Source: Botryllus schlosseri
Lineage: Eukaryota
Reading direction: 5' to 3'
DNA length: 64,000 nucleotides
NCBI GenBank assembly: GCA_051294905.1
Contig: CM119372.1
Span: 8,248,001 to 8,312,000 of the forward strand
The stretch's first letter is position 1. Each line of letters begins with the position of its first letter. The notes under the pieces are model-generated. The model had not been told where the DNA came from. It searched no databases and saw only the letters and a program-made list of their open reading frames with translations. Positions 3,332 through 44,500 of this stretch are shown here, piece after piece. Both the position numbers and the translations under genes were made by a program.

Positions 3332-3388
3332 CAAGAATAGGACGTCCGAGAATGTATTGAACATTCATTACTGATGTCATTGTCATGT

Positions 3389-3395: not shown

Positions 3396-3669
3396 AGCGT
3401 AAAATACCAATTCTTTATCATTACAAGTTTTATCACTATCCTATATTCCACCGAACGCCTGAAGGCAGCTGAAGACAATATCGTGCAAGACAGGTTACTA
3501 AGGTTTCAAGAAGTTAGCATAACGGAATTCAAGTTGATTTAGGTTTACGAAAGAACTGTCGTATCGATATAAGTGACGAGGCTTATCAGGTGCAAGCGGG
3601 CTGTAGCGTGTAGCCGAGCTAGGATCGTGATCTGGATTACCACAGCAAGTCTGCCAGCAGCATCTCCCG

Positions 3670-6600
3670 ATGTACCTGGTTGCTCCGTTTTGCCTTCTTG
3701 TCGTTTTCAGCTTCGACGTTGAAGGTAAATATTGTAAACTTTAGGATTTACTACACGGAAATTCGGTTTCAGAGTAAAAGTACCCTATAAGTCCACGAGT
3801 TTTTGAAGAAAACATTGTCGTAAACACAAGCAGGCACTCAAATCACGGTGTGTTGGGCTGAATTGTCTCAACAAAGCGGGTCCCTTCAAACTGGACCACG
3901 GGTGCGGACTGGGCAAACTGGTGTACATGGGTGATTCGATTCTCAATCGAGTATTAGGCTTCGAGTCGAGTCCAGTATTCGAGTATTAGTCATTATGACT
4001 CCGTGACAGTGTGAATGAAGAAAATCTTTTCAAAAGTTTGGCGTTGTGACGCGACAATGTCGTCTGGAAAAACAATGCCACAGCTCAGGAGCAAGTGAGC
4101 ATCGCCGCAAACCACAACACACAATTCGAGGCTGAATTTTTTGTGTCTGTTTTCTAGGGCCACGGGCAGAGTAGAATTTACATTTTCGTAATCAGTACTG
4201 ATGAAGCTTTCGATTGATATCTGTTTTATCGAATTTCGCGCCCGGCCAGTCTAAATATTGCTGTAAATGCCCATGATAGTCAAATGCAGAAAATGACGCA
4301 GTGAGGACGAATTGCCAAAAAGGAGGACATTTAGGCGTCATCGGAGGACATTTTCAATTTCCTGAAAAAGGAGGACAAATCCTCCTAGAGGTGGACGTAT
4401 GGTAACCAATGTCTCCTCCAATTTTTGACGCGTCTGCGCACACCAGTGTTGGGATCAAGTCACTACCTTCGAGTCACGAGTCATTTCGAGTCATTGCACA
4501 TTTTGACTCGAGTCAAGTCAAGTCAATCGATTTTCTAAAGTGACTCGAGTCAAGTCAAGTCACCCAATTCTCGGAGGTGACTCGAGTCAAGTCGAGTCAA
4601 GTCAAGTCAAGTCAAGTCAAGTCAAGTCAAGTCAAGTCCAGTCACGAGTCAAGTCATAATTCAAGTCAAGTTGCCTTTTTGAAGTATGAGACATGATTAC
4701 GTCATTGCATTTTGCTAGCTGGCTGAAATATAGATTGAGTGGTCATTGATTCTGAACCGATGGACGAATACAGAGATAAACATACACGCAAGAAGGCCCT
4801 GTATCGCTCACATATAGCCTACGTGGCATAGCCCCGTTTTATAGGTACTAGCCAAAATAGAGAATAGATAATAGAAAATCGAATTGATATAGATGCAATA
4901 CATTACCCATTTACAAATTGATATGATACAATTCGAGCCTGCGCCAATGGTTGAGGAATAGATAAACTATATTCGAATTCAATTTCAATAAAACAGGAGG
5001 TTTCGTTAGGGTAAGTACAGAGAACAGAAATAGACATCTTGCTATTAAATTATTTTACTATAATTTATGGCAGCATAAGCTGTAAGCTTCGATCACTTCG
5101 TTTGCGGAAAATTTATTTGTGAGAGAGCAATGGAGGCTCAGTAAAACGCAGGATCATTGAATGATTGGTCGCTCTCACGGCGTTTCACACCAGCGTTTCG
5201 CGAACAATCCGACCATATGCTAGATACAGTGATTTTTACCGACACCGATTACTTCATGACTTGAAATTGACTCGTGAATTTTGCTCCGAGTCACGAGTCA
5301 ATCCACATTTCTGATACGCCGAGTCAAGTCAAGTCAAGTCATTCTAGCAAGGTGACTCGAGTCAAGTCAAGTCATTCGAAAAAAGTGAATCGAGTCTGAC
5401 TCGAGTCAAGTCATGACTCGAGTCATCCCAACACTGGTGCACACTCACCAACTCACTGCGCAGACCCTTGGACAACAGTGCGTAACGACTAAATTAAAGG
5501 TCCTCATTTCGGATTTTTTATGCAGAACTTAGATTTTCTGTGCGCAGAAACCGTCTGAGCACTGCGCATTTGCGCACGTGCGCATCTTAGAGGGGGCATT
5601 GATGGTAACCCTACTATTAAAGGACATTATGAAGTGCCTGATTTGAGGACGTCTAATGCTTTGGTCTGGCTTGAACCGGTTGTTGTACTGTTGTGCTCTG
5701 CAGTCGTTGCAATGGATCCGTCGTGTGTGTTAAGTTTGATCCAGTGGAACCTATGGCGAGTGTAGCCATCCACTAACAGTTAGACGGGTCAACGACCGAA
5801 TGGCTACACATGTAATATCTCTGTATTGACGATGGATGGTAGCAGAGACTTGGTGTCACGTATATATCCGGGCATTTTTTCACAAATGAAGGTTCTACAA
5901 TTTAGATCAGGCGTGTCAAACTCAATAAGGGTCGCGGACAAGATTGAAACCTTATGATCTCCCGCGGGCTGCACAGTCAAATGAAGCCAAATGGTACCGG
6001 TTATCCCCCAAATCCAGACCTTTGTGCTTCACTGGATTTATTCATTATGAAGCCTATGCATAATATATATTATTACGGATGATTTGGGGCTCTAGCCTCT
6101 GTATTCTGGCAACATATGTATTCGGAAACAACGGAATTGGCGACAATTACGATTTGAAACCGATTGCATATACAATACATCTATAAACCGCTAAAATAGT
6201 GGCTTTAACCTGCTAGTCACAACAATATAAATTGATATCTTTCTATGCACCCGTTGTTTTAGTCGCGTCGCGCGAATTGGCCGAGCGTGTATTTTGTGAG
6301 GAAGACCAGAGTTTAACTGTAAACGCGGTCACCAAAATTTGCCGCGAGATGGTTACAACGTGGCATACGAACAATGAACACGTTAAACATTTCCTGTCTT
6401 GAGGAATTATTTACATGAAAGTTGATATTATTAAGAATCTCAACTTTTCTTATAAATGTGATAGAATTGAATAGTATGAAAACATATTGAAATGAGCCCG
6501 AAAATTTTCGACTGACACTCGTCAGGGTAATCGTCAGCAATTAGTAGAGAATTGGGTTCATTTCAATATGAATATACTATTCAATTGCATATTGAAGTTC

Positions 6601-9600
6601 TGCACCTGCAAGAAGCTCTTCAAAAATGATAGATAATACAAGTATTTTTCCATTTATTCAGAACTGGATAAAATCGTCTGTTGGGCAGTATACGTTTGAC
6701 ACCCCCGATTTAGATGATTAAATTGAAGTCAATTTTGATTGAAATGTTTCGTAGAACCTAAATGCTGTTGAAATTCCACAGGCTGTCACAATGCTCAACA
6801 CACACAGCCGACTGCGGCTTTAACGTTCTCCGGACGAAAGCGAAGAGAGGTAAGTTGTCCCGACTGCGCAGAAGATGTGGACGAGGACTTGTCTTCATTT
6901 TTCACTGATTGCATGATGTCAAAACGTCCGGGAGAGTTTACATCGTGGAGAAGCGTAGTCGATTTCGTTATCAGAGATTCAAAGTGGTTTCAAGCAACTG
7001 ATGAAGAGTTTTGCAGGTGAGGCTCGAGGATATGTGGGTATCTGGTTTAAGTCCATTCTAAACCGACGGGTATAAATTTGAAAATACGTAATGTCAAAAC
7101 ACGAAGATGCTATAGCGGGACTAACCAAATTTAATGACTGATTCAGCTTCGATAACGGAATTATTAGGGCTACTTTCTTCACTGGAAATGGAAGCACATT
7201 ATTTTAACCTGACACGTGCATTTGTTTTAGCGGGCGTAAAGACAGCGCCAAATGCTGGCAAAGGCGCACAGAGTACATGTTGAATTTCCAATCTTCTCTG
7301 ATATCCCCCACAAAGGATTGTATTGCGGAGTACGACAGACACGTGAAGGACTCATGTGAGGATTTTGCTATCTCTATATGAACAGACGACATAGATGCAC
7401 GGAAACAAAAGCGCTTATGTAATTCTAATAATAATCCAACTCAGTGGTTCTTAAACTGGGGTCCATGTGTCCGGTGTTGACCGTTTATAGTCATCAGGTC
7501 GCTGATCTAACTAAACCTAAACAGGGAATAGAGCAATTGCGGATCGGAACCAGGCACGTGAATTTCGATAATACATGATGAATATCCTAAAAATTATTCG
7601 AATAATAAGTCTTACAATCTTTCGCAGCCTTGTAGAAAGCCCGATTCACTATATGTTTATCTCGGTAATATATGCATTCGACATTGTTTATCTATGATCT
7701 TCGACAAAATTGATTGCAACATATCCCTGCCTTAACACGTTAGTAATAATCAATAATTATTATAGCAATAATATACTTGGGGAATGTTTGCAGTTGCAAA
7801 AAAAAACATTTTTTTTATTCAAGAAACAATAATGACGCGTCAAGCGAGTCGAATATCAAGAGAATACATTGCCTCGAGCTACGGGTAATTATAAAGTCTA
7901 ATAGATAAATACATAGTACACACCTTTCGAAGACCAATACCCATACAACAATCTCAAGGACTCACGGGAATACTGTATTATTCGGTATATTATTCGGTAC
8001 TATTATATACTTGGCGAAAAAGAAGTTTCGCTACGATTAATTGAAACCAGAGGTTGCAATTATGCGTTCCTTGTCAATATTTAATTATTTCAAGTTCAGG
8101 CACGAGTAGGCCTAATGGAAAATAACAAGACTATACCTTATATATATGCGAACAAAATTCATGGAAGGCGGTGGCAACGAAAATTCAAGCCAAATCGTAA
8201 GTCCACATGACTACCGAAATTTTTCAAGGAATCATATGGAAATCCTTGAATATGCCCGAACTGCTCTTTCTATAATTTACCATTAATTAGACATTAAGCT
8301 TATTACACAACTTTTGGGTTAGTTCGGAAATTTATGAGTATTTTCAATTTTCTTTTCGTCCGGTTACTATGACAATATTATTCGATAAAGAGATAATACA
8401 ACACTACTTTTTACTTGAAAAAATAAAAAGTGCATAAACGAAGCACTTTCGCTTCAGAACACGCTAAATATAGAAGCTGATCACATCACCATACTTGAGC
8501 AATGAGCACGCAGTGCAAGTATAGGCAAAGTATACTGTACTTGCGTGTTCTGATAAAGCATGGGCGTATACATCTGGTATTTCGACAGATGGTGCCGAAT
8601 TCGAGCAGTATTACATCAAGAACTTCGACATGTACGACTACGAAATTTCTATTGGAGAATTTATGCGACCGAAACGCAACCTAACGGATTCCGACGACGG
8701 AGTGAATAAATTTGCTGGCGCAGTTGTGGATGTAGCGAACCAAATCGCACAGAATTGCCACTTATACGACGTACTTCTGTACGGCGAATGCCTAGTGTCT
8801 AAATTTGAAGATATATTGGATGCATTTCTCATCACTCACCCATCCCTTACATATTACAACCAGACTGTGAACGACAAGTTCGTGAAAGAACACTACTCAA
8901 GTTGCAGGTAACTTTTCGATTTATAACAGAGAAAAAAATGACATTAGCGTCTACGGAATGCGAGATGGAGACAAATGAGAGATAAACGATTTCATTTCGA
9001 CGATATCACATTACAAATATATGCCACATAAGTACGCTATCCTGGACAATAAAATGACCGCAATAATGGTTATCTCCGAGAAGACAATTTTGACGGAATC
9101 TTTTGATTTGTAAACGTTGTAAAAATGAACTGTATGCATAGTTATCGTATAGGTACATTTTCTATCTATTTGAAAAATGGATCTCAAAATTTGATAAAAT
9201 AGTCATAATAAGCTACTTTGGTTCCAACACGACGATTTCCGCCGCCCATTTCCGTATACCGAACTCCGACAAAACCAAAAAGCAGCCATATACCAAACTG
9301 CACATTTGCGACCCGAAAACTATCAGAATCCAAATATACTTTCCCATTTTGACACCTTGCAAATAACTAGTGACATTTACATGGGATACGCACGTCCAAG
9401 CAACAAATTGTGCTTACCAAGAAATTATTCAGGTCAATGCGTTCTTATGGTTTTACAGGATATCTGTAGCAGAAGTGAATGGGAAGACGATATACACGGA
9501 GCACTGCCCGCTTATCGCCACAGCGGAAGAGAATCCTACCAATTCATTCCGCCATGCGGATGTGGCACCCAGAAACTCCTGCCTCATATCTGATTACCTG

Positions 9601-11142
9601 CAGATTGTTAAACCAACTTCGCCCGTCTATTCGATGTACTCAAGTTGCGCTTCCGAGTCCAGAGAACGGTTGGGCTTTACTACCCAGGAACCAGCTATAA
9701 CTCGCGCCATCGTAACGGAAAAGCCTGAACCTTTAGAGATCAGGAAGTTCGGGAAGAAACGTAAGTATTAACCAGGGCTTTGGAGCAGCGGTAAATTTGA
9801 AACTGCCCCAGCTCCAGCTTCGGCGCTCTCTATTATCATAAATTATCTGCGGCTCCGCATTCGAGATCTATCTAATGCAGGGGCGGGCAACATACGGCCA
9901 GCGGGCCGGATCCGGCCCGCGAAGGGATTTTGTCCGGCCCGCGGACAGTTTTCCGTCTTACATGATAATGTGGCCCGCAGCCCCAGTCTGCCAAGATTCC
10001 CATTACTTGCTTACTACGTCAAATTTTAGTGACTCTATGTTAGTATATGCGTGTATCCAAAGCGTGCGAGAGTATGGAGCTTACGCGTAAGTTCGTCGAA
10101 GCGAGAAGCAGACTTGCATTATCGGCATTTACGATGTACTCAGCCCTAATGTCGTTTGTGGTAATCATGGTGTTTGTCGACTATAATGATCATTTACACC
10201 AGGCTGATATATCTTATTTTTAATCCGTAACCGCCGACTTGTAGCACGGCACACTTCTAGGCTTTCGTAAGACACCGCTTATACCAGGCGTCGCCAACTC
10301 AAGACGGGTCGCGGGCCACTTTTCAAATTTCGTGGAGTACGCGTGCCGCAAGAATTCAACATCGATATTAATTACGCCACACAGTTGAACAACGACGCTA
10401 TCTCGTCACCTGATATCCTGGTAAATTTGAGGTACCTGGCTCATCGAACGCCTTGAAATCTTAATTAAGAATTGCACCGTGTGTTCATTGATAAGCTGGA
10501 AGCACCATTGACGGCGCCTGTGTGACGATGCTATTCTCAAATCCACATTGTCTTCGTCATTATCGGCGAGAAATGGCTTTGAAGTGACATTGCTGTCGTT
10601 GAAGTTCATTCATTAAATAAGATTTATTCCTTGTATACGTGGCGTGGATAAATGGGCGAATAATGTATCGATTCAGCAATCCGACCCGCCAAGTACTTAA
10701 AATTCCTATATCCGGCCCGCTAACTGGAGAAGTTGCCAGCCCCTGATCTAATGGTTCAGTCAGTAATCGGTAACAACGGTTGCAGCCGTCCCAGAGAACC
10801 GTCAATTTGTGTGGTTATTCGAAGTCATGTGACGTGATAATTACTGTGTGTCGTCTGCTGATGAAATTACCGCCGCACGAGAATGCACTTAAAGGGGCAC
10901 TGCGCTCTAAAAATGATGTGGTCTCAAATTGAAGGGCAGCAAAACGAGAATTTTTTTCTGGCCGCAGCCATTTCCTTCAGAACGCCACCGTAATGGAGCT
11001 GCAATTTATTGAAATTTCCACAGGACCTTCACGCTCCAGGTGTCGCGGCTGCGCGTCATTCCTTAACCCGTTACATGCACGATGTCTTCACCGTCGCACT
11101 TGCTCGACGCGATTAGGCAGTCACGCAGAGAACGAACTTTAG
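3670..11142 (+). CDS. Gene N1: uncharacterised secreted, furin-processed cysteine-rich precursor (short model about 384 aa; long model with CysD exons about 536 aa)
   Basis: Phase-compatible GT-AG exons: 3670-3724 (signal peptide MYLVAPFCLLVVFSFDVEG), 6782-7016 (CHNAQ...SGRKRR...FFTDCMMSK...SWRSVVDFVIRDSKW...EEFC), 7231-7355 (KCWQRRTEYML...KDCIAEY), 8589-8907 (...MRPKR...YGECLVSK...HPSL...DKFVKEHYSSCR), 9459-9760 (...EHCPL...SCLISDY...SSCASES...). Candidate terminal exon 11024-11142 (RPSRSRCRGCASFLNPLHARCLHRRTCSTRLGSHAENEL*). Exons 1-5 match N2 in sequence and intron phase; the terminal exon is less certain. Confidence 0.85.
4407..5601. mobile_element. hAT-type MITE (CAATG...CATTG), middle layer of a nested insertion
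   Basis: Perfect 8-bp TSD ATGGTAAC; uninterrupted sibling at 55333-55449. Confidence 0.85.
4444..5436. mobile_element. hAT-type MITE with CAGTGTTGGGAT TIRs and subterminal (GTCAA)n/GACTCGAGTC arrays
   Basis: TIRs CAGTGTTGGGAT/ATCCCAACACTG; TSD GCGCACAC/GTGCACAC; inverted second copy at 59674-62444. Confidence 0.92.
5908..6707. mobile_element. hAT-type MITE (CAGGCGTGTCAAAC...GTTTGACACCCCCG)
   Basis: TIRs and perfect TSD ATTTAGAT (5900-5907, 6708-6715). Confidence 0.88.
9878..10745. mobile_element. hAT (Charlie/Buster-like) MITE
   Basis: CAGGGGCGGGCAA...TTGCCAGCCCCTG; perfect TSD ATCTAATG; GGCCCGC subterminal motifs; contains a SINE 3' fragment (about 10195-10280). Confidence 0.88.
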
Positions 11143-17779: not shown

Positions 17780-19566
17780 GTAGATTGGGCAGATGCCTAG
17801 CCGGGAGCTACTGGACAAAGTTTTACAACCTGGATTCACCAGAGGGATTGGGGGATCTGGAAACTCTTGAAAGTTTACGAAATGCTTATCGGTTTGCGGA
17901 GATTTGTCAACATCCGGTCGCAGTTCATGCTCGGATAGCCAAGGGTTCCTCGGGAGATCACGTGCTCATGTCATTGGACGATGGGTTGCGCTGCTTCAAC
18001 AATATGCAGTCGGGAAAACTATGCTCGGATTACGAAGTTCGATTCTGCTGCAGAGGTATGTTTTTCTTCGACTAATCTTAACTTCGACCCGCGACCTTCT
18101 TAGAAGCCACGAGAACAATTGGAAATGAAGTTACATGTTATCAAGTGTCTATAGAAAATGAAGGCGGTGATAAAAAATTGTAGTAGGCTAGGCTACTTCG
18201 AAAGTGGGCCATAGACTGCACGCAGTTCAGAAACCGCTGCTTAACGAAAAGTCATGCATGGTTCGGATTCAAAAGCAGATTTATAAATCCCTACTGCGCC
18301 TGGTAGGCCATATATGACTAAGTGCCAAATGGAGTAGTGGGGAGGTATAGAATGTCCATGCAAGCGTATATATAATCTTGCAATAATATGCGACGGCAAG
18401 TGTAAAGAGATTTTACCAGTTTTCAGACCTTGGACATGACTGTGTCAAGTGACGAAAAATCCTAGAATAATTGAGAAATCGCCATGGTTTTATAGCCATA
18501 ATAGTAAAACATCGTGATATATTAATTACATATCGCATTCATCCAGCCCTCGGGATAACTCCGAGAGTCAATGAATAAAACATTACAACCATTCCAGCAA
18601 TGACGTGAGGAAATGTCGTTGAATTGTAAGAAATTATCGCCACGAAAATCCGATGGCGCTGTCGGTACTTAGTCTAGGTGACAGTACGGGGTGCGGAACT
18701 TGATTTTTAAAAATACGAACCCGTCTGACAGCTTGAATTTATGAGGAACAATCAATCCGCCCGAATCCAAAGAAATTTCTTCCAAAAACCCGTGTCCAAT
18801 AAAGACTGAGGCTAGTGTTGGCTGATTTATATTTGTTCGGAACCTTGACATAACAATTTTACACTTCTAGCAGTCCTATCACGAGCTGTCCACTGTCCCA
18901 GTGTCCGTGTTCGTTTTTCGAGCAGATGATTTTTTGTGGTCTGCAATGAAAACTTCTGGTTGCAACTAACCGAAAATGTCCGAAATAAGATTTGAGAAGT
19001 AATCCATATTCAGTATATGATCGGACTGTACAAAGTTTTAAGAAATCCAGTTTGAATCTGAATGATGTCCATCTCTGCTATGCTAGATGAGACTGGAGAC
19101 CTATAATTGAGAACCTACACAGCTTTTACCTTTAACAACCTGGAAAGAGCTCTCTAAAACAATAGGAACATATACTTTCTCCAGAATGACGCCCGAGTCT
19201 GTTGTTAACAATTCAAATGTACAGTACATTATAACACAGTTCAATACCAGTTTTAAATGTTTTACAGAGGTAGTCCCGGAATGTAGCGACGGCTATGCAT
19301 GGACACCGTGGTTAGACAGGGATCGTCCGAAGCGTGGCGAAGACGAATCTCTTGCGAAGCATCTTTCCGATGGCAACGCCTGCGACGAACCGACTAATAT
19401 TCGAGCGCGAATAAGGAACTCGAAGCATTGGTACTGGAAGGGAAACAATGTACTCGACATATCCCCTTCGCACGGATTGACGTGCAAAAGAAGGGACCAG
19501 TTAAAGCTTATCATGTGCAAAAACTATGAAGTCTCATTTTGTTGCCCCGACCTTTCGAATGTTTAA
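17780..19566 (+). CDS. Two exons each encoding a mucin CysD/WxxW domain (as in MUC2/MUC5AC/CILP); distal end of N1 or a separate gene
   Basis: Exon 17780-18055 (CLAGSYWTKFYNLDSPEGLGDLETL...ICQHPVAVHAR...GLRCFNNMQSGKLCSDYEVRFCC) and terminal exon 19268-19566 (CSDGYAWTPWLDRDRP...ACDEPTNIRAR...GLTCKRRDQ...CKNYEVSFCCP...*), joined in phase 1. AATAAA at 19667-19672. Confidence 0.92.
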
Positions 19567-20933
19567 AGCTACGAATCGGGAATATTGAGATATGTCTTAC
19601 CTTGATGTAGCGTGTTTTTCCCACACTTGAAACAATTTATATATCATATAAGCTCTGAATTAGGATAATAAAAATGTCACGGTGTACGGTACTGGGTATA
19701 ACGAATAGATAATGCAAAACTAAAACGAAGAGCATTTTACCACGAGGTATATGGCAATGGTGAGTAATTGAGCATGGAGTTGAACTTGAAAAAAAAAACG
19801 AAAGGTCTTCTTGAGTGACCATTCAAGCTATCCAGCATGAGGAATTTAAAAATTTGTTAGCAGTAACTGAACTATTAATCGACGCTTTTGTGCCGCATAT
19901 CTAGCCAATGGATGGATGCGTTTAAGTTCATAATGGCATGACTCTTTACTGCGCTATAGTGGTAGCTGTTGAAGCAGCGAACAGCAAAGGTTCAATGCAG
20001 CTTTATCATATGAATATTTTGACGATAACCCGTACCAATTGATTCAATCTAGGAATGCAAGAGGAACCCAAAAGAAAGAACGCGTAAAAGAAAATTTCTG
20101 ATCTTAATTTAATGCGGCACATGCAGCCGATCGCACGAGCTTTCAAGTTCTTCGATGTTCCCTTAAACCAGTGGCTCTTACTCAAACCTGCGGAACTCTT
20201 ACGCTAATCTGCAAGCCTTCGCGGAACGAAAATATTCTCTGAATCATAAAAACAGAAGTCGGTCACACAATACACATCTAGTAGCCGACATTGTTGTAGA
20301 TTATTGGTGCACAAAATGAACGAAGCATTAAAGAGTGTTAAAAGAAAACAAACATTAAAATATAATTTTTCACACAAAACGAAAACATAATGAATATATA
20401 TTGCAAATCGGCGTGACTTCTCCTGTTCCCTTCAGATAACAGTTCGGAAATGTTAGGCTTCACCTTGGAAAGTGTTATCTTATTGTTCGGTCGAAACGGA
20501 TCAGCGTGATACCAATGGTCCTAATTACAAATGAGCTTATAAATATCGGAGGAGAATTGGTATTTCAGAAGAGCGGGTCTCGAATTCGTACCCCAACCTT
20601 CTCTTCACTCGCGGCTCGTCACTGCCCACGGCGTACCACCACACTCGTCACAATTTTGGGCCTAATTACCTACTACCAATAATGGCCAAGAGCAGCGCTT
20701 TTAAACCTTTTTGAGCACCATTTGCAATTTTTTGACGAAAAAAAAATTCATTCGCATAAACCAACCGAAAATTGTTATACACAAGCAAAATGAAGATACT
20801 AATCAATATTTTGTTCGGATGTTCAACAAGTAGGCTACCGGTTTATAAGAACCATCCAATACTCCTTCTATCCTAAATACACCGAATTTTCCAAGAGTGG
20901 CAAATGCTTTCTTGCAGATACAAAGGATTAGTG

Positions 20934-29563: not shown

Positions 29564-32500
29564 ATGAATTTACGGATAACTGCATTGCTACTCGCTTTTG
29601 CGATTTCCAGCATTGAAGGTAAAGATATCAAGTATATTACATGGAGTGCTCGCTTTACAGTCAAATATTGCTACAACGGCATATAATTTGAAAAGACACA
29701 TTCTGAAATAGATATCAATAGGAAGATGCCTGATTTTCATACTGGCATATAATTTGAGTGTTTACAATTTTTGTTGCAATGTAATATGTCGAATATGATA
29801 ACGAAATCATTAAATTGTATGCATGGAAAAGTAACTTTTCATCTCCCAAAACATACCGATTACTTTCTTTCGCATTCGAAATTAGGTTTTATATCCAGCA
29901 TTACTGATATCCAGCATTGCCCCATTGTGGTTCTCTCAGTAGTAGGGTTGGGAAAATTTGTAATTCGATTCCGAGCATTCATCTTCGAGTCAAGTACAGA
30001 GTATTCGAGCAACCCCATTTTATGATGTTATAGCAGCAATAATGATTTGAAAATATCAAATACTTACGTTTTTGCGACTGCAGGGAAAATGATGCCTGCA
30101 GTTACACGCCATCCGAAATAATTTCGTATTCCTTATTAAAAACTATTTGGTAAATACCATTGTGAGAGCCGATCATCCCTTGATAGAAATATCGTACCCA
30201 TGAATAATCGTAGCATGTTGTAACTTGTTTCACCGTACCGAGTTAGGACCAAGCGGGGTTTCGAGGCTATGATGGTGGGGATAAAGCATTGGAAGTATAT
30301 TATTTACTGATGCAGTATTACCATTGGATTATTTTCGTTATTGGAATAAAAGGACTCTCACTACTCTACTGGAATCACTAAAATCAATGCTCGACAAAGA
30401 TTCTAGTAATCGAATCGTTGTGCCTGCTGCCCTATATACGCAGTTAACACTATGTCACTTGGAATGTTACACCTCGACATGCATACTTCCGGGATAGTAT
30501 AAGGTAACGATCAATTTACACCAAAATGGGACTCCATCTGACCCAAATATTTCTGCGAGAGGAGGTTGCACCACACTTGGTCCCCCTGAAGGGTATGTCT
30601 ACTTACATATGAGCTGGGATAATTTGTTCATACCTAATAGTAGGAACGATGGACACCATCCATGTCAAGCGAAACTAGCTCAATTATCTATTTAGCACTT
30701 CACCCAATCGTTAGGTGAAAGTATCTCTGGAAACTAGAAAATGAAATCACGAATATTTATCATCTATAACACGAAAATGCGATAACGACTTTCGTATGTG
30801 CTTGTAACCTTTCAGTATCAAAACGGGGCTTTTACTCAGATTCGCCGCCGGCATTTGAAACTCGAACACAGCGAACAGTTAATAACAAGTCTTTACTATA
30901 GAGATGTGCTCAAAATTTATTTGTGCTGTGTAGTTAGTTTTGAAATAACCTACAGTGCGTTCTGCAAGTCGCATTGACGTCATTATGACAGCGATTATAT
31001 GACTTTTAACTCCTCGAAATTTTCAAAAGGTTACAAGTTATGAACTAAATAGCGACTCGAATTTGAAGCTTTGTCGGCACCCACGATCTATCTGAAACGT
31101 AACTTTGCGCGTAGGGTTGCATTTAAAACAAGCATTGTTTTAAAACACTTTGTTTAAAACGTGTTTTATGCAGTGTTTTAAACAAATGCCTTTAAAGATT
31201 TTTTTTCAAACGTCCAATTATGCCATACTTGTGTAAATAGTAAATACCTTCCAAAAACAAACAAAAAATGTATGAGCTTACGGACGATTTGCACCCAATA
31301 AAGTCGACGTATACGATGTGGGTGGTTGGAACCCTCGAAATCGTCGTCGGTTCAACAGTCATATCATGTAGATATAGGTCATTGGTACGGAACGGGTGTT
31401 CTGGTGATGAACACTACCTACCGTAAAAATGCTGCATAACGATTTAGTCCTGGTCAAAGATATTTTTGGTCTGTGTATGACAGTGGTCCAAAGACCCATT
31501 CGTCGAAGGAGTTATATTTACCCTATATTTTTTATTGTAAATGTTAATCCTCTGTGACGCCACAATTATAGATTCGTGACGTCATGGCTAAAAAAAAACA
31601 ATAAAAAACATGTCGTAAACAAGGGTCCTGTTTTAAACATGTTTTTTTTTAAACTGATTTTTGTTTTAAATGCAACCCTATTTGCGCGCAACTTGGCTCC
31701 TACACAACGGAATAAACTATACATTCAGTTAGCGGTGAATTCATGTTTACAGATTGTGATGTAAAACACACCCAAATCGTGACTTCCTAATTCCAAATCC
31801 GAATAACATAATTCACTAATTTCACCAGCGATCTGGGTTAGATGAATAAATTTCCTGTATATATGTCCTCTTTTGTGGATCCGTAAATATTGGGGGGGGG
31901 GGGGGAGAAAATTTGTGTCGAGTTTGAGAAGTGGGCGTTTATTCGAAAAAGGTTGGGAGCCTCTGCTTTAGAGTCTTGGAGCACAAAATCAACTGTTATT
32001 CAAAATAACAAAAGCTTTAAAACATGATTTTCCCACAAAACAAAATGTTCGCAAAAATATTGTAGGCTATTTCCGTGTGACTTCTGCTGTTTCCTTTCAG
32101 AGATTTCACAAATGAGAGCATCGTCGTATTCTTCAGTCGAAACGCAACAGCGTGGTATATTCTATAGTGATACCAATTACTTCATCGATAATGAGCTGAT
32201 AGAGATAGAGATAGAATTTCAAAAGGACAGGGTTTCGATTTTGAACTCCAACCCCCTTCACGACTTACCACCTGAACAGTCACAATTTGACAAACAATCG
32301 AATTTAATTAAGAACCACCGAGTAGAGTAATCAAACTAGTGGAGGATATTGATCGATTTTACAGTCCGCAATTATGCTGCATCTCCCTATCTGCTGAATT
32401 TCTACCGTGTCTTGACACATAGCTATGTATGTAATGGCTATACGCACGGTGATTCAGTTCAGTTTAGTCCTATAATTTCGTACATTACTCTACACTCTAC

Positions 32501-35500
32501 AGCATGTCATCATCGGCAAGCTACATTTCCACCGGATAGGTTTCCAGAAGAAGATTTTCGTCGCCGTCGCAAAAGAGGTCTTGCTGGCGGTGATGATGAC
32601 ATCATATACACTATTTATCCGACAAGTCAACCGACAGCCGTTGACGCAAACCCAGAGCTGAGTAGATTTTTTACCCAATGCATGTTGGAGAAGACTGGCA
32701 GCGTATTCAGATCGTGGAAAAGTGTAATTGACTTTGTATTCCGAGACACTCGATGGTACAGCGCAACAGAGGAACAGTATTGCCCGTAAGTATCGAGCGA
32801 GTTACATATAAGATACTATCGTGTTCTCAAAGGAAGTTGTTGGTGCTAGCTAAAGAAATCATTCATATGTGCCAAATTAAATCTACAGTAATTGAGGAAT
32901 TGCAATTAGTACTGTCGGCACCGGCAATGCGATAATTTGTTACTGACAGGGAAAATAGCGACACTGATCGACTAAGCACAAGCTGCTGGCAAGGACGTAT
33001 CAATTTTCTTCTCAAGGAAAACTCACAACTTAAATCAAAGGCAAAAGAGTGTATCCAAGAATACGCGTGGTCGCAGGAACGCGGTATGACATATTTGTGG
33101 ATATTCATCGAATACATCGCCGACATACGAGAGTATCCGTCCATGTATATTCTATATATTCAGGCTCTTCAACACTGATACGAGGCAAGCGACAAGTTTC
33201 CACCGGCTTTTCGTCAACAAGAGATCCATGTTTAGGAGTCACGATTGTCGCGTACGATAATTGTATTCGTGGCGGCCTCGTGACCCCTGCAAATTTACGC
33301 GAATACCCATCGTTACGGAGTTGGGATGCGGTATCGGTCGATAAGTTTGTGAAAGAACACGTATCAAACTGCAGGTACGCCATAAAACATGCATGCTGCT
33401 AAATGCAACTTGCCGTGAAACCGGGATTGACAGAATTTCATTTCAGGATCACATCTCGTCCCGTTGGTGGCAGGAACAGATACAATGAGGTGTGCCCACT
33501 GGTACCCAGCGGGCTACCGAGCTTTCTGCAACCTACCACGTCGCCCTGCCTGTCTGAAATCTACAATGAAATCGTCAGAACATCGTCGCCATTGTTTCCT
33601 GTTCAGAAATCGTGCACTGAAACGTTATCAGGTTCGTATTCGCCGAGACGCAACGTGAATTGTTTTTTTTTGTACGCTTCTCTGCTCTGCACTGTTGCTA
33701 GGATAGCAAACGTCACTGTTTTTAATGTGTGTCATCACAATGTCGTAAACTTCGTACGAACGAACGGTAATTCTCATCATAATTCTTTTTGTAAGGCATT
33801 ACAAGTTCCAATAAGACGTCGCATAGGTCTTTGGAATTGGACGTTGCATATTTTTGTACTTGATGCATCAGTTAGCTTCAGTAATTATTGTTGCTCATCA
33901 GCCGATGGCTTTCATATTTTCATCCGCTCAAGACACGCGATGCACAATGCGATAGAAAAGACTCAACGCGTGCTGCCGCTTATGAGGACATCTTCTCTAG
34001 ATTGGCAACGGGTTGTAATTTATTCCATTTGTCTGTTATTGAGTACACCGTCATCACTATGCGTTAGTAATCATCACACATTAACTTATTTTGTTTTGTT
34101 CCGTCCGTGACTGCGCTGAGGGCTCTCTCGTATTTTGAATTTCGTATTTTCCTCTGTGTGACGTTACAACTAGAGATACTGATTGTTGATAAACATAGTT
34201 TCAATTCAATCCAATTCAATCAGTTTATTAATATTTTCATCATTTCAAAACATCACAAGACTATGATACAATAAAAAGATAGGAAGGTGTCGAAACAACT
34301 TGGAGTAGCCTTTAAGATCAGACACCCACCTTAGCCTAGACGAGACAAAATGAGGTGGCATGTGGCGGAGGGCGAGGTCGATGTTAGGTCGTGGTCCTTT
34401 AATCCTGAAGGCTGGCTAGTATTCATTTTTTGGAGTGCTGCTTGCATTATAGCTGACGGTAACCCTGATGAGTGTCAGCTCGAAAAGCTTCGGGAATAAT
34501 ATGAATAGATTGTTCTAACAAGACACAATGCAAAGTAAAAAAACAGATCGATCTTGATCATGCTGTCTTTTCATGCTCTTTTTAATTGCGTCCTTTAATA
34601 CGTCCTTCCTCGGGTCATTTTTCTTGGCCTTTTATCCATAATTGCTACTTCATATATATATTATTATATATGATCTGATCATAACCATAAGTGGAATTAA
34701 TTATTACACACGAAAACATGAAATAAATGTCCGTGCTCCACCCCGGACAACCCCATAACCTTATTGTATACATCTCAGTCCAATTCGTTGTGACGACATC
34801 ACAATGGACCGGTGGTATTGATTTCGATTCATACCATTGCGTCTCCACACATGCAGTATTTTACAATATGCAATTGGTGTCTTCGTTGAATTTCTGTATT
34901 TCCGTCCTTATTCTGATAATATTTCACCCTGATAACAGGTAACCAGAAGTGCAGGAATGTGGTTTGCGGAAATCACGCGACCTGCGATGTAACCACCGGG
35001 CTCTGCAAGTGCGACAGCAGCTACGTGGAAAATAGTCTAGGACTTTGCGTCCGTGAGTATCACTAAATCTCTCCGCGAAGTCCGCGACGGACCGCAATAG
35101 ATGCAGACATATATTGTTTTCAGTTGAGAACAAATGCGCACTAGTTTTCTGTGGATCTCCTTTGGAAACTTGTAACCCAAGTAACGGACTTTGCGTGTGC
35201 ATAACCGGATATGAGAGGGACTCGACTGGTGTATGCAGAGGTAAAGGTTTAAATTGTCTAGCCTTTACTAAAACTGTAAAGCACTTCCTAGATTTCCGAA
35301 TTAAATGACTCGAAATATTACTCGCAGGCCGCATTGATAACTTCCCGGTAACATTTACGCCAAAATGAGCAATAGCCGGAAATCGTCCCGATTAAGGACA
35401 GAAAATCCTTATTACGATCATTCCATCTAATATTTTCACTATCTCGAAGCCAGAAGCGTAATACACGAAGTGTGCCAACGATTCTCTAATCTCTATCGTG

Positions 35501-38500
35501 TAAATATGAGGGTACATGTACTTGCACATAGGGTGATGCGCCGTACTGAAATCAGGTATTATGTATAAATGTGATGACTATAGAAATGGTGCGAACATTC
35601 TGTTCACGTTCCTGTTCGGTATGCGCACCGTGATAATACTTTACGTGCGGAAATAAACGTTTATAGGTTTTACCCTGTAAAACTTTTTGAGAAATATCAT
35701 TGTATCACAATAATCGTGTCATTTTCTATGTATAATTTGTTTGAATTTCGTCCTCGTATCACTCGAAAAACTAAGATAAGCTGTGTATGGTCAAATTTGC
35801 GTGAAATATCGCATTGTTCGGTCGTAAATATTGAATCGACTTTATTCCGTCACTGTTACCTGTTTGACCTGAAGACTGTCTATCCTAGCTATATGAAGAG
35901 TGAGATCATGAGCTGAGGTTTTCTGTAACGAAGTTCAGGTAGCCTACATCTGATTTTCGGAGAACTCAAACTAAATTTGTACTACTTGCACTGCTTCCGC
36001 AACCGGCTTCAAGGCATTACTACGTTTTTCTTAGACTTTTAATTTTCCTAGGTAAAAAGTAGTTTTGTAGTATGTTTGCATCACGTTTACGAGTGAAATT
36101 ATCATAGCAACTGGGGGGAAATAGCTTCTGTATCACGGTAACTGAATATATTTTGACAATTGTTATTTTACATCAGCCGCCAAGAGTAGTTTCGATTTCC
36201 CTTCCAAATTTCTACTTGTACTGAGTACAGATTTATTACCTTACCTCCAATTCTACTTGTGAACCAACTATGACTACTTGGCAATCTCTGATCATGAGCT
36301 TGTATCTCCCCGCACAGTAGCAGAGTTATCAACGTCCGATGCAACCACAAATGATACCTGGTCCAAAACCGTTTCCTCTTTGGGTTCGAAGATTCTCATC
36401 ATAACTGAACACAACTGTGAGAAAATTTGCGTCCCTTGCGGGTTGCAAAACTAAGCCCCGAACTATTACAATTTTATCAGCAAGTTGTTTAACATTATGA
36501 TGGGATATTTCGATCGATACACTAACACATAGCGACCGAGCACACTCTAATTGTAGGAAATATATTACTGCGGTAACAGACAGGGGATTAATAGACAGAA
36601 TGGGGAAATTTGAATTTCGATTGCAGTAGTATTGAAGTATCACGTGGCTTCATAGGAATAGGACGTCCGAACAAACGGTCTGTTAGATTTGAAGTATAGC
36701 AATTTCGAGAACCTAGAAAAACATGTTTTATTCACGTTGCGGATTATATTTTGAAATAATTCATAGCGCAATGTATTTTAGATATAAATCCGTGCAGAAA
36801 TGTCGTGTGTCGGGACCGGAACCAAGTATGCAACCCAAGAACAGGAAATTGTGAATGTCCCCCTGGGTACAGCACAGTCGGTGGGCTTTGCGTCAGTAAG
36901 TGATATCGGACTATCCCTAATGCAGAGGAAAGATGACATTATAAAACGCACGCGCGTTTCTTCAGTCCAACCAGCCGACCCGTGCCGAGGCGTAACTTGC
37001 GGAGCAAATCAAAAGTGCATTAACTTTGGTGGAAGAGGGTACTGCATCTGCGAAAGTGGATTCAGATTTGTTAACAGAGAATGTGTCGGTAAATATCATT
37101 CCTATCGATTTACCGAATGAAAGACTATCAGCTCCACTTCAATCCTTAATGACTTATTCAGGTGATGATATATGCAGCAGGATTGATTGCGGAGCCAACG
37201 CGGAATGTTCTAACATCAACGGCAGAGCTATGTGCAGTTGCGTAACTGGATACGTGCGAATAAATGACGCCTGCATAAGTAAGTTTATCTTGTGTCATTT
37301 ATTTTTACCACTGGTACTTCGGCCTGTACATTTTCGCTAATTATGCCCATTTCAACCGTAATTTAATAGACGTTAATTGGCCGATGATTTCGTAATCATT
37401 AGACTATATTCGTCCAGAGCGACGAGAACTAGATTATATTCATTAATTCACCGATTTAATTTGTCTGAATATAAAAACGTAGGGCAGCATAATCTTATTC
37501 TTGTGATTTCCTATGGTTACAATTATATTTGAAGACTTCCCACAACAATGACCATTTTTCTGTATGCAAGTGGGTCTACGGGAAGAATTTCGATCCTGGT
37601 CTCGATAAATATACTTGTACATGCTGTGTACAAAACTTGTATCCAATTTCTGCTGTCCGCGAAAAGGTTTCTATTCTGGTACGCTTGAGATAAGCTCCAA
37701 TGGGCTGCGAGAACGGAAAAAATCACCAAATTATACACATGATAACTTTGCATGCACATGAATATTGACAAAGTTTACTTAAAAACTGACATTTTAGATT
37801 TGTGTTGAGTACGTTGCAGACTTAAGCGTTTCGAGTGCTTCTCAAATTTGACGTTGCTCTAGGGAGTCTAGGCATTTCATTGCGGTACGAATTCAAACCC
37901 TTTATGAACTCACAGGACGCAACCCGTGCGCTGGAGTTCGCTGCGACCCCAACATGAGATGCGTCAGTGGGAATTGCGTGTGTCGTAATGGGTTTGTCCC
38001 GGCACCAAATAACAGACCAGGATGCGTTCCACAAGGTTTGAGCTTTCGAAGTCTTCAGAATATTATTGGTTCAGCTAATCGACCACGCGTTTGAGCACAC
38101 TTGTTGTTATGTCGTATCCGTGCTGTCTCTACATCTTGGCAGAAGTATGGTCGAAGTAGTCAACGTTTGTAGTCAAGTTGTCGTATAGAGGTGACGCCGT
38201 AAAATTCTACTCAATTGCAAGTAGCAGTCGAAAGTTTCACGGCATTTCAAAACTACATTAGGTAGAAAATATCGGAATTAAAAGTTCTGAATAAGTTTCC
38301 AGAAGTAGATTTGGTCGAGATGTGTCATACTCTTCGCAATTAATTGTAGGTGCCGTCTTTTCAATCGTAGCGCTTAGTTTGGCGACTGATGCGAAGTGAC
38401 TAATGACCCAATGAATAGGGGCAATTTTCGAGAACATATTCAAATACCCGGGTACTAGGGGGGGGGGGGATATTCAGTCCACTTGTTATGACAATCCCGC

Positions 38501-41500
38501 TCCGAAAAGTGATGCAAACTTAATTCAAACTACTTTCTACTTAACAAAATCAAAAGTGTAAAAAGCAAGTTGTTTTGAATAAAAAAAAAACAATTAAGTG
38601 AAAATGGACGAAATCTGAAGACATAATAATCATTCGTGTAAGCAGTGCAAGCAGGTGAAAACCTACTTGAGCACTCCGAAAGAGTAGTAGTATTTGGTTA
38701 CTGGCCACTTCTAGGTCATTATTCACCATACCGATATATCTTATATATATATATGTTATGTATATCAGGGCTATGCAACCTGCGGGCCGCCGAACAACGG
38801 TCCGAGAAGTGCCAACATTGAACGGCGATTGGCCCGCAAAATAGTTTACTAAGTCAGCTTGTGGTCATGTACGTTTGAGCTAAGCTCAAATGGATCAAGA
38901 GAGTGGACGAATAAACACAACTAACTATGCATATGGTGAATTTGAACAATACAGATGAATATTTTTCCCGTGCCATCGCCGTTACCAATTTCTAATGAAA
39001 TAGCTGAGATCGGCCTTACAACTAGGCTACCAGGGAGCCTATTTGCGGCCCACGGCCCCCCGCCATATTTCTGACTGGCCCACTTATATAAAATCTTGCG
39101 CATGCAAGATGATTCCTGAGTTGTCTACTTATCGCACAGTTTACTTTTGTTTCTGTTGCGGCGGTGGTGCGATGCGTAGCACTATACGTACGCTATTCGC
39201 CACCTCTCGCGCACATAGTTCGTCCGCCTTATAATGTCAGGCATACTCACCTTATAAAATGTATTTCGTCAATTTCAGATCCGTGCGCTTCTGTGCGATG
39301 TCCAGCAAACAGCAATTGTGTTAACGGCGACTGCGTATGCGATGTTGGATTCGAGCTCGTCGATGGGCGTTGCAGAAGTAAGCGTTTCGAGTGCTCCTCA
39401 AATTTTACCTTTAAGGCATTTCAATATGGTATGAATTCAAAACATTTATGAACTCACAGGACGCAACCCGTGTGCTGGAGTTCGCTGCGGCCCCAACATG
39501 AGATGCGTCAGTGGGAATTGTGTGTGTCGTAGTGGATTTGTCCGGGCACCGAATAACAGACCAGGATGCGTTCGACCAGGTTTGACATTTGGTCATCTTC
39601 AGATTACTACTGGTTCCGCCAATCAACCAACTATCAACTCCACCTTCGCACCAAACAATTTTTGTTCATAATCATGGTGTCTCGACATCTTGACAGAGGT
39701 GGTCAAAGTAGTTAACGTTGGTATACTCAATCAGAAGTAGTGGTAACGCCGTAAATTTCAAATCAATTCCAAGAAGCAGTATAAAGTTCCAAGGAATGTC
39801 AAAGTTACTTCAAGTGGATGTAGTAAATAAATACAGGTCTCAAATGTTCTCAAGTGTAGGGAGTTTCCAAAAGTAGATATGGTCAAGAGGTGTCATTCTT
39901 TTAGGAATTAATTAGAATTGGCTTTTTCAAATCGCAGGTTGCATTTGGGTGACGGACTGAAAAATACTAATGACTCCATGAATAGCTGCACTTTTCGGAA
40001 ATATATTCAGTTACCTTGATACGAGCTGGTAATTCACCCAGTTGTTACTACAATCCCGCTCATAAAAAGTGATGCAAACGTCCAAACTACTGTCTGTTTT
40101 GCGAAATCAAAAGTGTAAAAGTAACTATAACTTTGCCCAATAAACTGTTAAGTGGAAGTAATTTATAGAGTCGAGTAGTGCAAATAGGCAAAAACCTATA
40201 CTTACCTACTTATTCCGTTACTGCTGGCCACCCTGCATCTATGGGTCCTGTATCTTTCACCGAACCGATAGATCTTATATGTATAAGAGGTATGCAACTT
40301 GCGGCTCGCCGATACAAATTTTACGGCCCGAGAAGTACCAATATTGAACGGCGTGTGGCCCGCGAAATAGTTTTCTAAGTCAACTTGTGGTATGGTACGT
40401 AATAAATCCTGCGCAATATACATTATGAGTGTGTCTATTAGTTTATTGTAAGCTAATAGGTAATAACCCCAATCACACTATACGATCTTAAATGATAAAG
40501 AAATGTACAAAAAACGGTAAGCTCCAGCGCGCGGCGTGAAGCCTGGCGTCAAGAGTTGCCAACTGCGGGAAGGCTCTGATAGCCGAATTTCTTGTAAAAT
40601 AGCGCCAAACTGACTGAAAAAGTGCTGAATTATGTTAAGTAATAGAAATGACCATATATATATATAAAGAGAAATGAGCTCCAACGGTTCAATTAATTAA
40701 TTAATTAATTAAAATATGTAAAACTTTAAAATTCTAAAACAAAAGCGCCACGAAGAAAAACTATGCAAACTTTCGCATGGATTAGCCCGCTTAGTGGCAT
40801 CACGAATTATATATATGCCCAACGATCTAATCGTGGCCGTTGTTCAACTGCATATATCCAAGAAAGGGAGAGCATGTCTGTAGTACCTATAACTGCTGAA
40901 TGATATAGTTAGGATTACAAACTGGATGTTGCCATGGACCGCAGATTGAATGACCTACTAATATTTCGATGTACGGTAATCCAAGATAATGATTCATAGG
41001 ATGTAAGTCACCTACCAACTTTAATTTCATATTTCTCTTACTCTAACATCAAATGCTTCCTAAGATGCACGAGTAGACAGCACTTGATACTGATCTAATG
41101 TGCTGTTAACAAATTTTCATTGGGATAGTTGAGTAAAGTCGAAAGTGCCAAAATAGTGTCAACGTGCCAAACACCAATTTCCAGTGCCAACCAACGTGAA
41201 AATGGCCAAAGCTCCCAAATGCGCCAATTGGCAACACTGCTGGCGACTGCAAGCAAAGCGTCACGTCTGTCGCGGTCGATTAATGCTCAATTATAATTAG
41301 CCATAATTGAAGAGGGAAACATATTACAGCATAATGACCGTTGAGATATATCAGCACGTTTGAGCTAAGCTCAAATGGGCTAAGAGAAAGGACAAAAACG
41401 CACATATGCATGTGACAACTTATACGCACATGAATATTTCAGACAAAAATCGTACATTAATACACATACAGACCTTGATGACCAGATAAGCCTTGCAACT

Positions 41501-44500
41501 ATTAGAGAGCCTCTTTGCGTTTCACGAAATCACGGCTCCCCTGTACTATTTCTAACTGGTCTGCTTATCAAAAATCGTGCATACACAAACCTGAGCTCCT
41601 GAGTTGTCTACTTATCGTTCGGCTCAAATCCGTTTGTGTTGCACTTGTACTACCTACTTTATTCGCCACCATTCATCCACAGTTTGCCTGCCTTATAATG
41701 TCAGGCATACTCACCATATACAATGTATTTCGTCCATTTCAGATCCGTGCGCTTCGGTGCGATGTCCAGCAAACAGCAAGTGTGTTAACGGCGACTGCGT
41801 ATGCGATGCCGGATTCGAGCTCGTCGATGGACGTTGCAGAAGTATGCGTTTCGAGTGCTTCTCAAATTTTGCCTTTACTCTAGCTAGTCATTTCAATATG
41901 ATGGTATGAATTCAAAATATTTATGAACTCACAGGACTCAACCCGTGTGCGGGTGTTCGCTGCGGCCCCAACATGAGATGCGTCAGTGGGAACTGTGTGT
42001 GTCGCAGTGGATTTGTCCGGGCACCTAATAACAGACCAGGATGCGTTAGGCCAGGTTTGATATTTTGAAGTCTTCAGACTAATATTGGTTCTGCTAATCA
42101 ACCAAATATCGACCGCGCCTTTGCGCACACTTGTTGTTTCATCGTTATGTTGTCTAGACATGTTGGCAGATCTCGTCAAAGTACAGCCGTTGGTACTTAA
42201 GTAGAAGTAAACTATAGTAAATTCCTAGGCATGTCAAAACTACTTGAAGTGGAAGTCGAAAATAAAGGTTTTGAAGTCTCAAGCAAGTAGTTTCCAAAAT
42301 TACATTTGACCGAGGGATGGCATATATCTTTAGCAGTTAATCGGAGGTGGTTTCTTTCAAAATAGCAGGATGCATTTCTGTTGCTGACGGAAAATGACTA
42401 ATCAGCAATCCCCCTGCAAGGCGCAAATTTTGAAAATATATTCGTTCCCGCGACACGGGGCCTATTTTGCCCGGCTGTCATGACAACCTTCCTCCTTAAT
42501 GGGACGCAAACTTATCCCAAACTACAAAACATACAAAACGTAAAAATCATGTAGTTTTTCCCACAAAACTGGTAAATGGAAGTGGAGAAAAGAAAGCAGT
42601 CTGAAACTTCAGCACTTGAGTAAGTACTAAGTAGTGCAACAACGCAAAAACCTATTTGAGTAATCCGAAAAAGTAGGAGTATTTCATTACTGACCACTTG
42701 TGCGACCAGGTCATCACACAGCAAACCGATATATTGTAGGCTATATATATCGGGGGTGCGCAACGTAAGGCTCGCAGAGAACAATTGTGCGGCTATAGGG
42801 TTGCATTTAAAACAAATGGTTGTTTAAAACATGTTTTTTAAACAAGAACCTTTTTTTTAATTTCAAGTTGTAAAATGATGCCATAATTGTGTAAATACTT
42901 TCTAAAAAAAAAGTTGTATGAGCCTGCGGACAATTACCACCCGATATAGCCAACGTATACGATATGGGATGGTTGGAACCCTCAAAATAGTCGGTTGTTT
43001 TAAACATGTTTGTTTTAAATGCAACCCTATGTGAGACCCAAGAAGTGCGAATTTTGAATGCTGTTTGGCCTTTGAACTAGTTTCGAATTCAACTTTATTC
43101 CAGGTAGCAGTGGTACGTTTGAGCTAAAGAGGGCAAAATGAAGATACAAAAGCACTAAAATAAGCATATACCAGTAAATAGCTTTTCCCGTGATTATTTT
43201 TGACAAAATGGATTAAATGACCAGACAATTTTTACCGCGTCATCGCCGTTACCAAAGTTAATGAAAGGGTAGGGATATTGTTCTTGCAACTAGCAGAAAG
43301 TATATGTGCGGCTCGCTGCTCTCTCGTCACTTCTAACTAGCCAGCTCATCTAAAACGTTTAGCATGTAACCCTACTTATGGTTCCTGAGATGGCGACTTA
43401 TCGCGCGGCTCACTTTATTTGGTTTTGCAGCGGTGTTCATTTCGACTGTCTTACTATGTCAGTCATTTTCTCCATATACGATGTATTTCTTAATTTCAGA
43501 CCCGTGCGCTTCGGTGCGATGTCCAGCAAACAGCAATTGTGTTAACGGCGACTGCGTATGCGATGTTGGATTTGAGCTCGTGGATGGAAGTTGCAGAAGT
43601 AAGCGTTCCGAATCCTTCTTAACTTTTTTCTTTGCTGGATAGGAATTTCATTGTGGTTTAAATTCGAACCATTTATGAACTCGCAGGACGCAACCCGTGT
43701 TCTGGAGTTCGCTGTGGCCCCAACATGAGATGCGTCGGTGGGAATTGTGTGTGTCGTAATGGATTTGTACCTGCTCCAAATAACAGACCAGGATGCGTTA
43801 CGCCAGGTTTGAAATTTTGAAGTCTTCAGATTATTGGTTTTCTTCGCGAAATATCGACGATAAGCACTATGGTAGCGCAGTGGTCATGCTAATTTTTACG
43901 TGCTTTATATGCTCTCTCTCTTTTTGATCGAACAGTCGCGCTTAAGGCATTAACTGAGTTTAATCGCGCTAAATAGGGGATTATTCAACAAAAAGTTTCA
44001 AACGGGTATTGCGTGTCCAAACCTGGGAAAGTGCGCCCCTATAGAAGAGTGAAAGCACTTGATAGAGTACAATCTGCAGCTTTCTGGCAAAAATGATAAA
44101 CTATTGAGCCCGTAGAGCTGTTTTAATCCGAGGTTGTGTTAGAACGATTTGGTGTTATACGGCCCCGTAAGTCAGACCGCGATGAGTTTCATCCGATAGC
44201 CGACAAAGGCCATTGATGATGATGATATAACGCGAATTTATAGCATACACTTCCAACTTCCCCATATTTAACTTGTTATATTTGCATTTTTTCTTCTATA
44301 GACCCTTGCGATTCCGTGCAATGTCCGACAAATAGTGAGTGCAGAAACGGAAACTGCGAATGCGTGACTGGATTTGTGCTCATAGACGGATCTTGCAGAA
44401 GTATGTGTGAATTATACATCTAAAAGTTCGGAATTCAATGTACCAATGCCTTTCAACGAATAATGACTTCACAGGACCCAACCCATGCAGTGGAGTCAGC

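Follow-up and report, generated by a model that had tools for sequence, protein, structure and literature searches.

Two-domain heads of predicted ascidian secreted proproteins and their probable origin by internal duplication

Are the two cysteine-rich domains at the N-terminal end (the head) of a Botryllus schlosseri precursor copies of one ancestral module, and what would a precursor built in this way do? The question arises from a 64,000-nucleotide stretch of DNA (GenBank assembly GCA_051294905.1, contig CM119372.1, positions 8,248,001 to 8,312,000, forward strand), here called the window, whose coordinates are used throughout. It holds two genes with such a head, N1 and N2, in each of which a domain A is followed by a domain B. 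A sequence-only reading of the window had proposed that one disulfide-bonded, probably helical module was duplicated together with its furin site, and that the mature product could be an A/B heterodimer or a released A chain. We find that A and B very probably are an ancient internal duplication of one module and that N1 and N2, as judged from sequence, are members of a family of ascidian secreted proproteins with this head in common.

The N1 gene and its relatives

N1 comprises seven exons at 3464-19712 (+), and thus runs past both ends of the interval in which the head had been noticed (6782..9760). All six splice joints are spanned by one RNA contig in each of X1 and X5, five of the six are found in raw RNA run X23 and none of the six in single-cell run X21; four of 24 listed runs were compared with window positions 1-20000. 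The open reading frame of 536 amino acids is complete and encodes a leader of 19 residues, Cys20 (position +1), RKRR (37-40), domain A (52-133), RPKR (165-168) in an acidic linker, domain B (193-311) and two WxxW/CysD domains, with the signal-peptide cleavage site placed by the -3/-1 rule.

3464..3724 (+): N1 exon 1, 5' untranslated region and signal peptide, ATG at 3670, phase-1 intron after it; X1 and X5 contigs and two raw reads join it to 6782; hydrophobic 19-residue leader
6782..7016 (+): N1 exon 2, +1 Cys peptide, first furin-type site and first half of A, phase 1 to phase 2; sequence and RNA joints
6784..6786 (+): Cys20, predicted first mature residue, followed by His (C-H-x-x-x-H in N1); family conservation
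6835..6846 (+): RKRR, first furin-type site by sequence, predicted cleavage
6880..7339 (+): domain A, residues 52-133, split by the intron 7017-7230; five predicted helices; Cys62, 96, 105 and 127, Trp87 and Trp106 invariant
7231..7355 (+): N1 exon 3, second half of A with C-x21-C, phase 2 to phase 1; sequence and RNA joints
8589..8907 (+): N1 exon 4, acidic linker, second furin-type site and first half of B, phase 1 to phase 2; sequence and RNA joints
8666..8677 (+): RPKR, second furin-type site by sequence, predicted cleavage
8750..9657 (+): domain B, residues 193-311, split by the intron 8908-9458; Cys195, 206, 244, 261, 286 and 308; profile match to A, helices and beta-hairpin in the model of the relative P0003
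9459..9760 (+): N1 exon 5, second half of B and linker, phase 2 to phase 1; sequence and RNA joints
17780..18055 (+): N1 exon 6, WxxW/CysD domain 1; RNA joints; PF13330 at 69.3 bits (cut-off 22.4)
19268..19712 (+): N1 exon 7, WxxW/CysD domain 2, stop at 19564-19566, 3' untranslated region; RNA joints; PF13330 at 61.3 bits (cut-off 22.4)

A consensus GTAAGT donor stands at 6850, right after RKRR, and its use would skip the first half of A; it is not among the RNA joints listed, outside which lie 167 weaker joints.

The head is found at many places in the 495 Mb genome searched. An N2 exon matched 14 of them and three further queries added six, profile-confirmed on the fetched loci, giving at least 20 loci, five of which are clustered within ~75 kb on the window's contig. 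In all 12 loci examined the head exon begins one split codon before the Cys and ends the first half of A at a predicted phase-2 GT (after Cys in ten, after Tyr in two), and a matching intron site in B is predicted in 8/8 loci. A profile of 14 first exons recovered 36 proteins among 1.84 billion representatives; 34 were looked up and the 20 that were named are all ascidian (nine Styela clava, nine Clavelina lepadiformis and two Ciona). Amongst the 36, P0001, the N1 orthologue, shares 53% identity with N1 along its length, and P0003 shares 46% with the N2 head. The modules that follow the head vary among the 36 relatives (WxxW, TSP1, EGF, sushi, CUB, TIL, SUEL lectin, trefoil and LDLR-B in Pfam), and the database names of members reflect this cargo (cubilin-like, SCO-spondin-like, properdin-like, LRP1-like). 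Matrix modules appear to have been shuffled on behind the head via phase-1 exons. Pfam returned nothing above cut-off for the eight head exons of N1 and N2 nor for the heads of the 36 relatives. Word-index searches, which are weak and compatible with a wider range, gave no named non-ascidian member (N2 exon, none of 49 candidates scored; A alignment, nine of 4119; divergent members, three of 2891). No description of the family was found in the mainly open-access literature searched, and six Styela and Ciona locus identifiers led to no paper. Ci-meta2 (PMC13225635) is a possible lead, which we take to be of TSP1 type.

All counts leave out P0021, a repetitive artefact; A counts leave out the first-exon fragments P0002, P0018 and P0025; N-terminal counts leave out P0002, P0018, P0025, N2, P0010 and P0027 (5' incomplete); and B counts leave out regions shorter than 60 residues after A. 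P0017, P0022, P0024, P0026, P0027 and P0029 form a divergent clade (Shimodaira-Hasegawa-like approximate likelihood ratio test, SH-aLRT, 97), which may come from another tunicate lineage.

Origin of domains A and B

Pairwise, individual A and B sequences fail to align (blastp E 0.9-4.6). The profile-profile alignment, which had been named beforehand as a check of the duplication, is significant: an A profile of 34 rows and a B profile of 31 rows, the latter gathered only from regions after A, match in hhalign with a probability of 96.1, an E-value of 2.9e-9 and a score of 45.9 over 75 columns. None of 120 shuffles reaches this score (maximum 14.5 in 60 column shuffles and 15.2 in 60 with the Cys fixed), and reversed B scores 9.4. 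The halves are collinear, with A1-B1 at 72.6%, A2-B2 at 96.0% and crossed pairs below 1%, and ten of ten tests with A and B drawn from disjoint protein sets gave 81-96% probability. Two exons, framed by phase-1 introns, make up each copy, and the first of them carries the basic site; this arrangement agrees with the proposal of a helical disulfide module duplicated together with its furin-type site. Weighing against the duplication, small first-half profiles built from genome exons only gave a probability of 2.6%. That A and B are unrelated and alike through helix periodicity and Cys spacing would suit this figure, the lack of pairwise similarity and the difference in their middle part (a helix in A, a hairpin in B), but the match far above the Cys-fixed shuffles, the collinear halves and the shared exon phases make it very improbable.

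In a quick tree (65 rows, 95 columns; a careful search is unfinished) all 34 A rows fall on one side of a branch with an SH-aLRT of 97. A and B form separate clades, and the duplication would therefore be a single event, older than the split of the Styela, Clavelina and Ciona lineages. The intron sites of the two copies are likely, though no more than likely, to be identical by descent: counted from the conserved Phe, the Cys beside the intron comes 16 residues on in A but 8 in B, and hhalign pairs A-C96 with B-C261 and not with B-C244. Mean identity is 30% in A vs. 19% in B, with A the higher in 447 of 465 pairs, and between N1 and P0001 it is 67% in A and 40% in B; A is the conserved copy and B the diverged one. 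At equivalent positions the copies have Asp84 in A (Asp in 30/34) and His240 in B (His in 20/31), which together with the Cys at +1 could suggest a metal site or a triad.

Most of the local features on which the sequence-only reading had built are there. The four C-x21-C segments lie where they had been placed, in N1-A (C105-C127, 7253-7321), N1-B (C286-C308, 9580-9648), N2-A (32984) and N2-B (33547 region), and all four have hydrophobic residues at +8/+9, Ser at +13 and Leu or Val at +15; all four domains begin with [FY]xxC followed by a hydrophobic residue, and all four are split by a phase-2 intron after a Cys codon and two further bases, with GT/AG ends (shown by RNA in N1, predicted from sequence in N2). 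Across the family C-x21-C is less constant than in the four domains of N1 and N2: 24/34 A domains have this spacing, the others having 19-24, and no more than 12/31 B domains keep the first Cys. The resemblance claimed between A and B of N2 around RSW needs correcting, being shifted by three residues from the register of the SVxxFV helix match, and the Trp is not B consensus.

The cysteine at +1 and predicted release of the head

The strongest feature of the family had gone unmentioned, as had the C-terminal cargo domains. A Cys directly follows the predicted signal peptide in 31/31 N-terminally complete proteins and in 12/12 genomic paralogue exons, the residue at -1 being Gly in 20, Ala in ten and Ser in one (n=31), and this Cys+1 is more constant than either basic site. 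According to PMC8061759, 87 human proteins have a Cys at +1, which makes such a residue rare by default.

Within A, four Cys (62, 96, 105, 127) and two Trp (87, 106) are each present in 34/34. Within B, Cys195 and Cys286 occur together in 12, singly in one and are both absent in 18, and Cys206 and Cys308 are both present in 27 and both absent in four, counts which are inflated by the kinship of the sequences. In the paralogue L020, Tyr replaces A-C96 as well as A-C105 and B-C244 is lost, but Cys+1 is kept. We infer the pairs 62-127 and 96-105 in A and 195-286, 206-308 and 244-261 in B; the head totals are odd in both N1 (13) and N2 (11). As each domain would be closed by its own disulfides, Cys+1 would be left free, and we consider it probably unpaired. 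The co-loss of Cys within each domain makes a disulfide-linked A/B dimer unlikely in N1 and N2. L020 and a second paralogue, L019 (both C4), have Tyr for A-C96 and may be variant or decaying.

A basic R-x-K/R-R site precedes A in 25/31 and stands in the A-B linker in 18/31, and in most members a basic cluster lies 9-21 residues after Cys+1. The A-B site is not conserved across the family, though it is present in N1 and N2. The two-chain logic proposed earlier does not extend to the whole family, with the site in only those 18 linkers, and is weakened further by pairs that look intra-domain; a released A chain would fit better than a disulfide-linked heterodimer because A is the conserved copy. 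Insulin-type precursors likewise have basic sites and Cys-bonded helical parts, but here A and B are not separated by a peptide that a pair of sites would excise, the pairs look confined to their domains and the chains are homologous domains of 80-110 residues. In a tandem cluster of four near-identical paralogues (L030-L033, C5), all with G-C-H, the basic site before A is reduced to R-H-R-R in two and to K-R in a third, and the fourth has none. A and B are separable in sequence, with a SUEL lectin domain between them in P0029 and ~290 low-complexity residues in P0032.

We tentatively propose, at somewhat less than even confidence for the mechanism as a whole, that the head is a furin-released module on shuffled matrix cargo. 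The protein would be secreted and held covalently by Cys+1, most simply by disulfide bonding with a partner or with a second copy of itself; a furin-type cut at the first site would free the A-B-cargo part, and a second cut, where the site exists, would free A from B-cargo. A would be the conserved working unit, for recognition or assembly, and the B-cargo chain of N1 would end in its two CysD domains. Latent TGF-beta is held by a Cys of its prodomain, and the proposed logic resembles it by analogy, in an N-terminal Cys tether and a furin cut that frees the downstream part; in contrast, the family has no cystine-knot domain or sequence match to it, and has two sites and a duplicated domain. 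In MUC2, CysD domains form non-covalent cross-links or dimers, and Oikosin 1, a protein of the larvacean house, is built of them (PMC3195396). Since its cargo is two CysD domains, N1 would most likely act in mucus or tunic matrix.

Several points weigh against this mechanism. The +1 pattern was defined after seeing the sequences, with the signal-peptide end placed by the -3/-1 rule, and cleavage, tether and partner are all predicted only. The disulfides rest on co-occurrence among related sequences, A 96-105 on one possibly decaying paralogue, and 244-261 is putative. B has an odd number of Cys in P0016 and P0034 (three) and in P0014, P0022 and P0027 (five), and in these members Cys+1 could have a partner within the protein. 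The first site is absent from 6/31 and the second from 13/31, including the orthologue P0001 (R-x-x-R only).

Of the alternatives, which are partly compatible with one another, the best is that A and B stay together after cleavage as a pseudo-symmetric heterodimer, non-covalent (plausible) or disulfide-bonded (unlikely in N1 and N2, as above). The domains are homologous and nearly always together, B being found in 31/32 regions after A, their divergences correlate (r 0.61), and loss of the second site in 13/31 would be easily tolerated if they stay packed. Cys co-occurrence, however, keeps the pairs inside the domains, P0024 has A without B, and B diverges much faster than A; we regard the heterodimer as possible, though less likely than release of A.

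Cys+1 might instead form its disulfide within the chain, with a Cys in one of the two domains; the cut propeptide would then stay on and the head serve as a structural or folding prodomain. In B, the homologue of A-C105 is predicted to pair with a Cys upstream of it, and A-C105 could in the same way take Cys+1; several members also have the odd B counts given above. This would leave A-C96 unpaired although it is invariant (34/34), and neither the joint loss of C96 and C105 with retention of Cys+1 in L020 nor the odd head totals of N1 and N2 favour it; we think it unlikely.

Fatty acylation of Cys+1 by Hedgehog acyltransferase (Hhat), with a precursor held at the membrane until furin release as in Hedgehog and Spitz, is rather improbable. 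The likeness lies in the signal peptide, the invariant Cys at +1 of an inferred cleavage site and the basic cluster nearby, and Hhat requires a free N-terminal Cys, together with a basic residue within the first seven, Spitz being modified likewise (PMC8061759). Lys or Arg within the first seven occurs in only 12/31, and not in N1 (31/31 if His is counted), no Hedgehog or Hint domain is found by Pfam in the 36 relatives or the N1 and N2 exons, and in PMC8061759 no other predicted human +1-Cys protein is shown as a substrate and His+2 lies outside the listed substitutions. As Lys or Arg is there in only 12/31, with N1 not among them, acylation is a rival and not the lead.

Equally improbable, in our estimate, is a metal ligand formed by the Cys-His(-x3-His) N-terminus, which would bind Zn or Cu or plug the active site of a metalloprotease until furin removes or releases it. 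Cys1 of TIMP plugs a metalloprotease active site in this manner. His+2 is present in 23/31, and a second His at positions 4-8 in 16/31 (at +6 in 11/31), spread over Styela, Clavelina, Ciona and the divergent members; on the other side, 8/31 keep the Cys without His+2, and the N-terminus of the P0003 model is of low confidence (predicted local distance difference test, pLDDT, ~50).

More broadly, and as speculation that we think unlikely to hold in full, the family could be an ascidian class of Cys-tethered, possibly lipid-anchored, furin-released extracellular proteins, in which A, a five-helix disulfide domain whose fold would be undescribed, is cut out to serve as a diffusible ligand or a signal for assembly, and the head, reused on 20 or more genes per genome, times the release of mucus, tunic or immune modules. 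Were this true and the anchor a fatty acid, it would be the first large family of Hhat substrates outside Hedgehog and the insect EGF ligands. The invariant Cys and the basic sites offer a handle on the anchoring and release of tunicate matrix or mucus proteins.

Fold, known proteins and the rest of the window

AlphaFold2 predicts both domains of P0003 mostly at pLDDT >90, with five helices in A and, in B, helices matching those of A and a beta-hairpin in place of its third; the A domain of the N1 orthologue alone reaches 95.5. Foldseek gave no match at E<=0.001 for the whole model, the listing being filled by TSP1 cargo, nor for domain A in PDB or viral models, and VIA-align gave none of 48161 at Z>=8 for A. 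Its best match, the helical part of phenylalanine ammonia-lyase (Z 6.3, root-mean-square deviation 2.8, 76 aligned), is generic and was rejected. The head had one chance match only (E 0.72) among PDB sequences, and the ESM Atlas returned unrelated short matches at 0.92 for the exon and nothing usable for the head. Saposin, stanniocalcin, GFR-alpha and odorant-binding proteins are not among the clear fold matches listed for A, a listing that does not exclude them. The pair thus has no Pfam family, solved sequence or clear fold match in these searches, which fall short of showing a new fold. With its small size and confident prediction, and with no clear relative among solved structures, A makes a good target.

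Amongst known proteins N1 is nearest in its cargo to the secreted WxxW/CysD proteins (PF13330: CysD of MUC2 and MUC5AC, CILP, Oikosin 1), having two domains above the Pfam cut-off; it differs in the A-B head, which is absent from Pfam, and most family members carry other cargo. The body of CILP consists of TSP1, Ig and a C-terminal part. By architecture N1 is neither CILP nor a gel-forming mucin, whose body is VWD/PTS/CK (PMC3195396), as the N1 exons and P0001 show only PF13330. In tunicates, the sister group of vertebrates, an unnamed domain pair stands at the front of a large and expressed gene family, which is now mis-annotated by its cargo.

N2 was traced by sequence in the remainder of the window.

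29564..29618 (+): predicted N2 signal-peptide exon, the better of two candidates by sequence, with a phase-1 donor; would put Cys at +1
32503..33631 (+): N2 head, predicted splicing 32503-32785 and 32950-33083 (A), 33164-33374 and 33447-33631 (B); two basic sites, intron phases as in N1, last donor uncertain
34950..55099 (+): probable N2 cargo, ~20 EGF-like exons with TSP1-like and TIL-like exons, by pattern scan

The exons at 34950-55099 probably belong to the N2 C-terminus, given their strand and the Styela relative P0005, and several of the EGF-like ones were recently duplicated (blocks at 37.8-44.6 kb, 65-85% identical). On another chromosome (C7) lies a close copy of N2, L015, with 76% identity in the first exon and the same introns, which by sequence appears to be a recent transposed duplicate. 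Just upstream of N1, positions 3-110 (+) hold, together with L016 and L028, the 3' WxxW exon of a tandem paralogue, N0, whose A-B linker lacks the RPKR of N1 and has KKR just before B. Dispersed non-coding repeats with (AGTCA)n arrays lie at 4444-4671, 5223-5425, 59685-59872 and 62249-62444 and are abundant in RNA runs.

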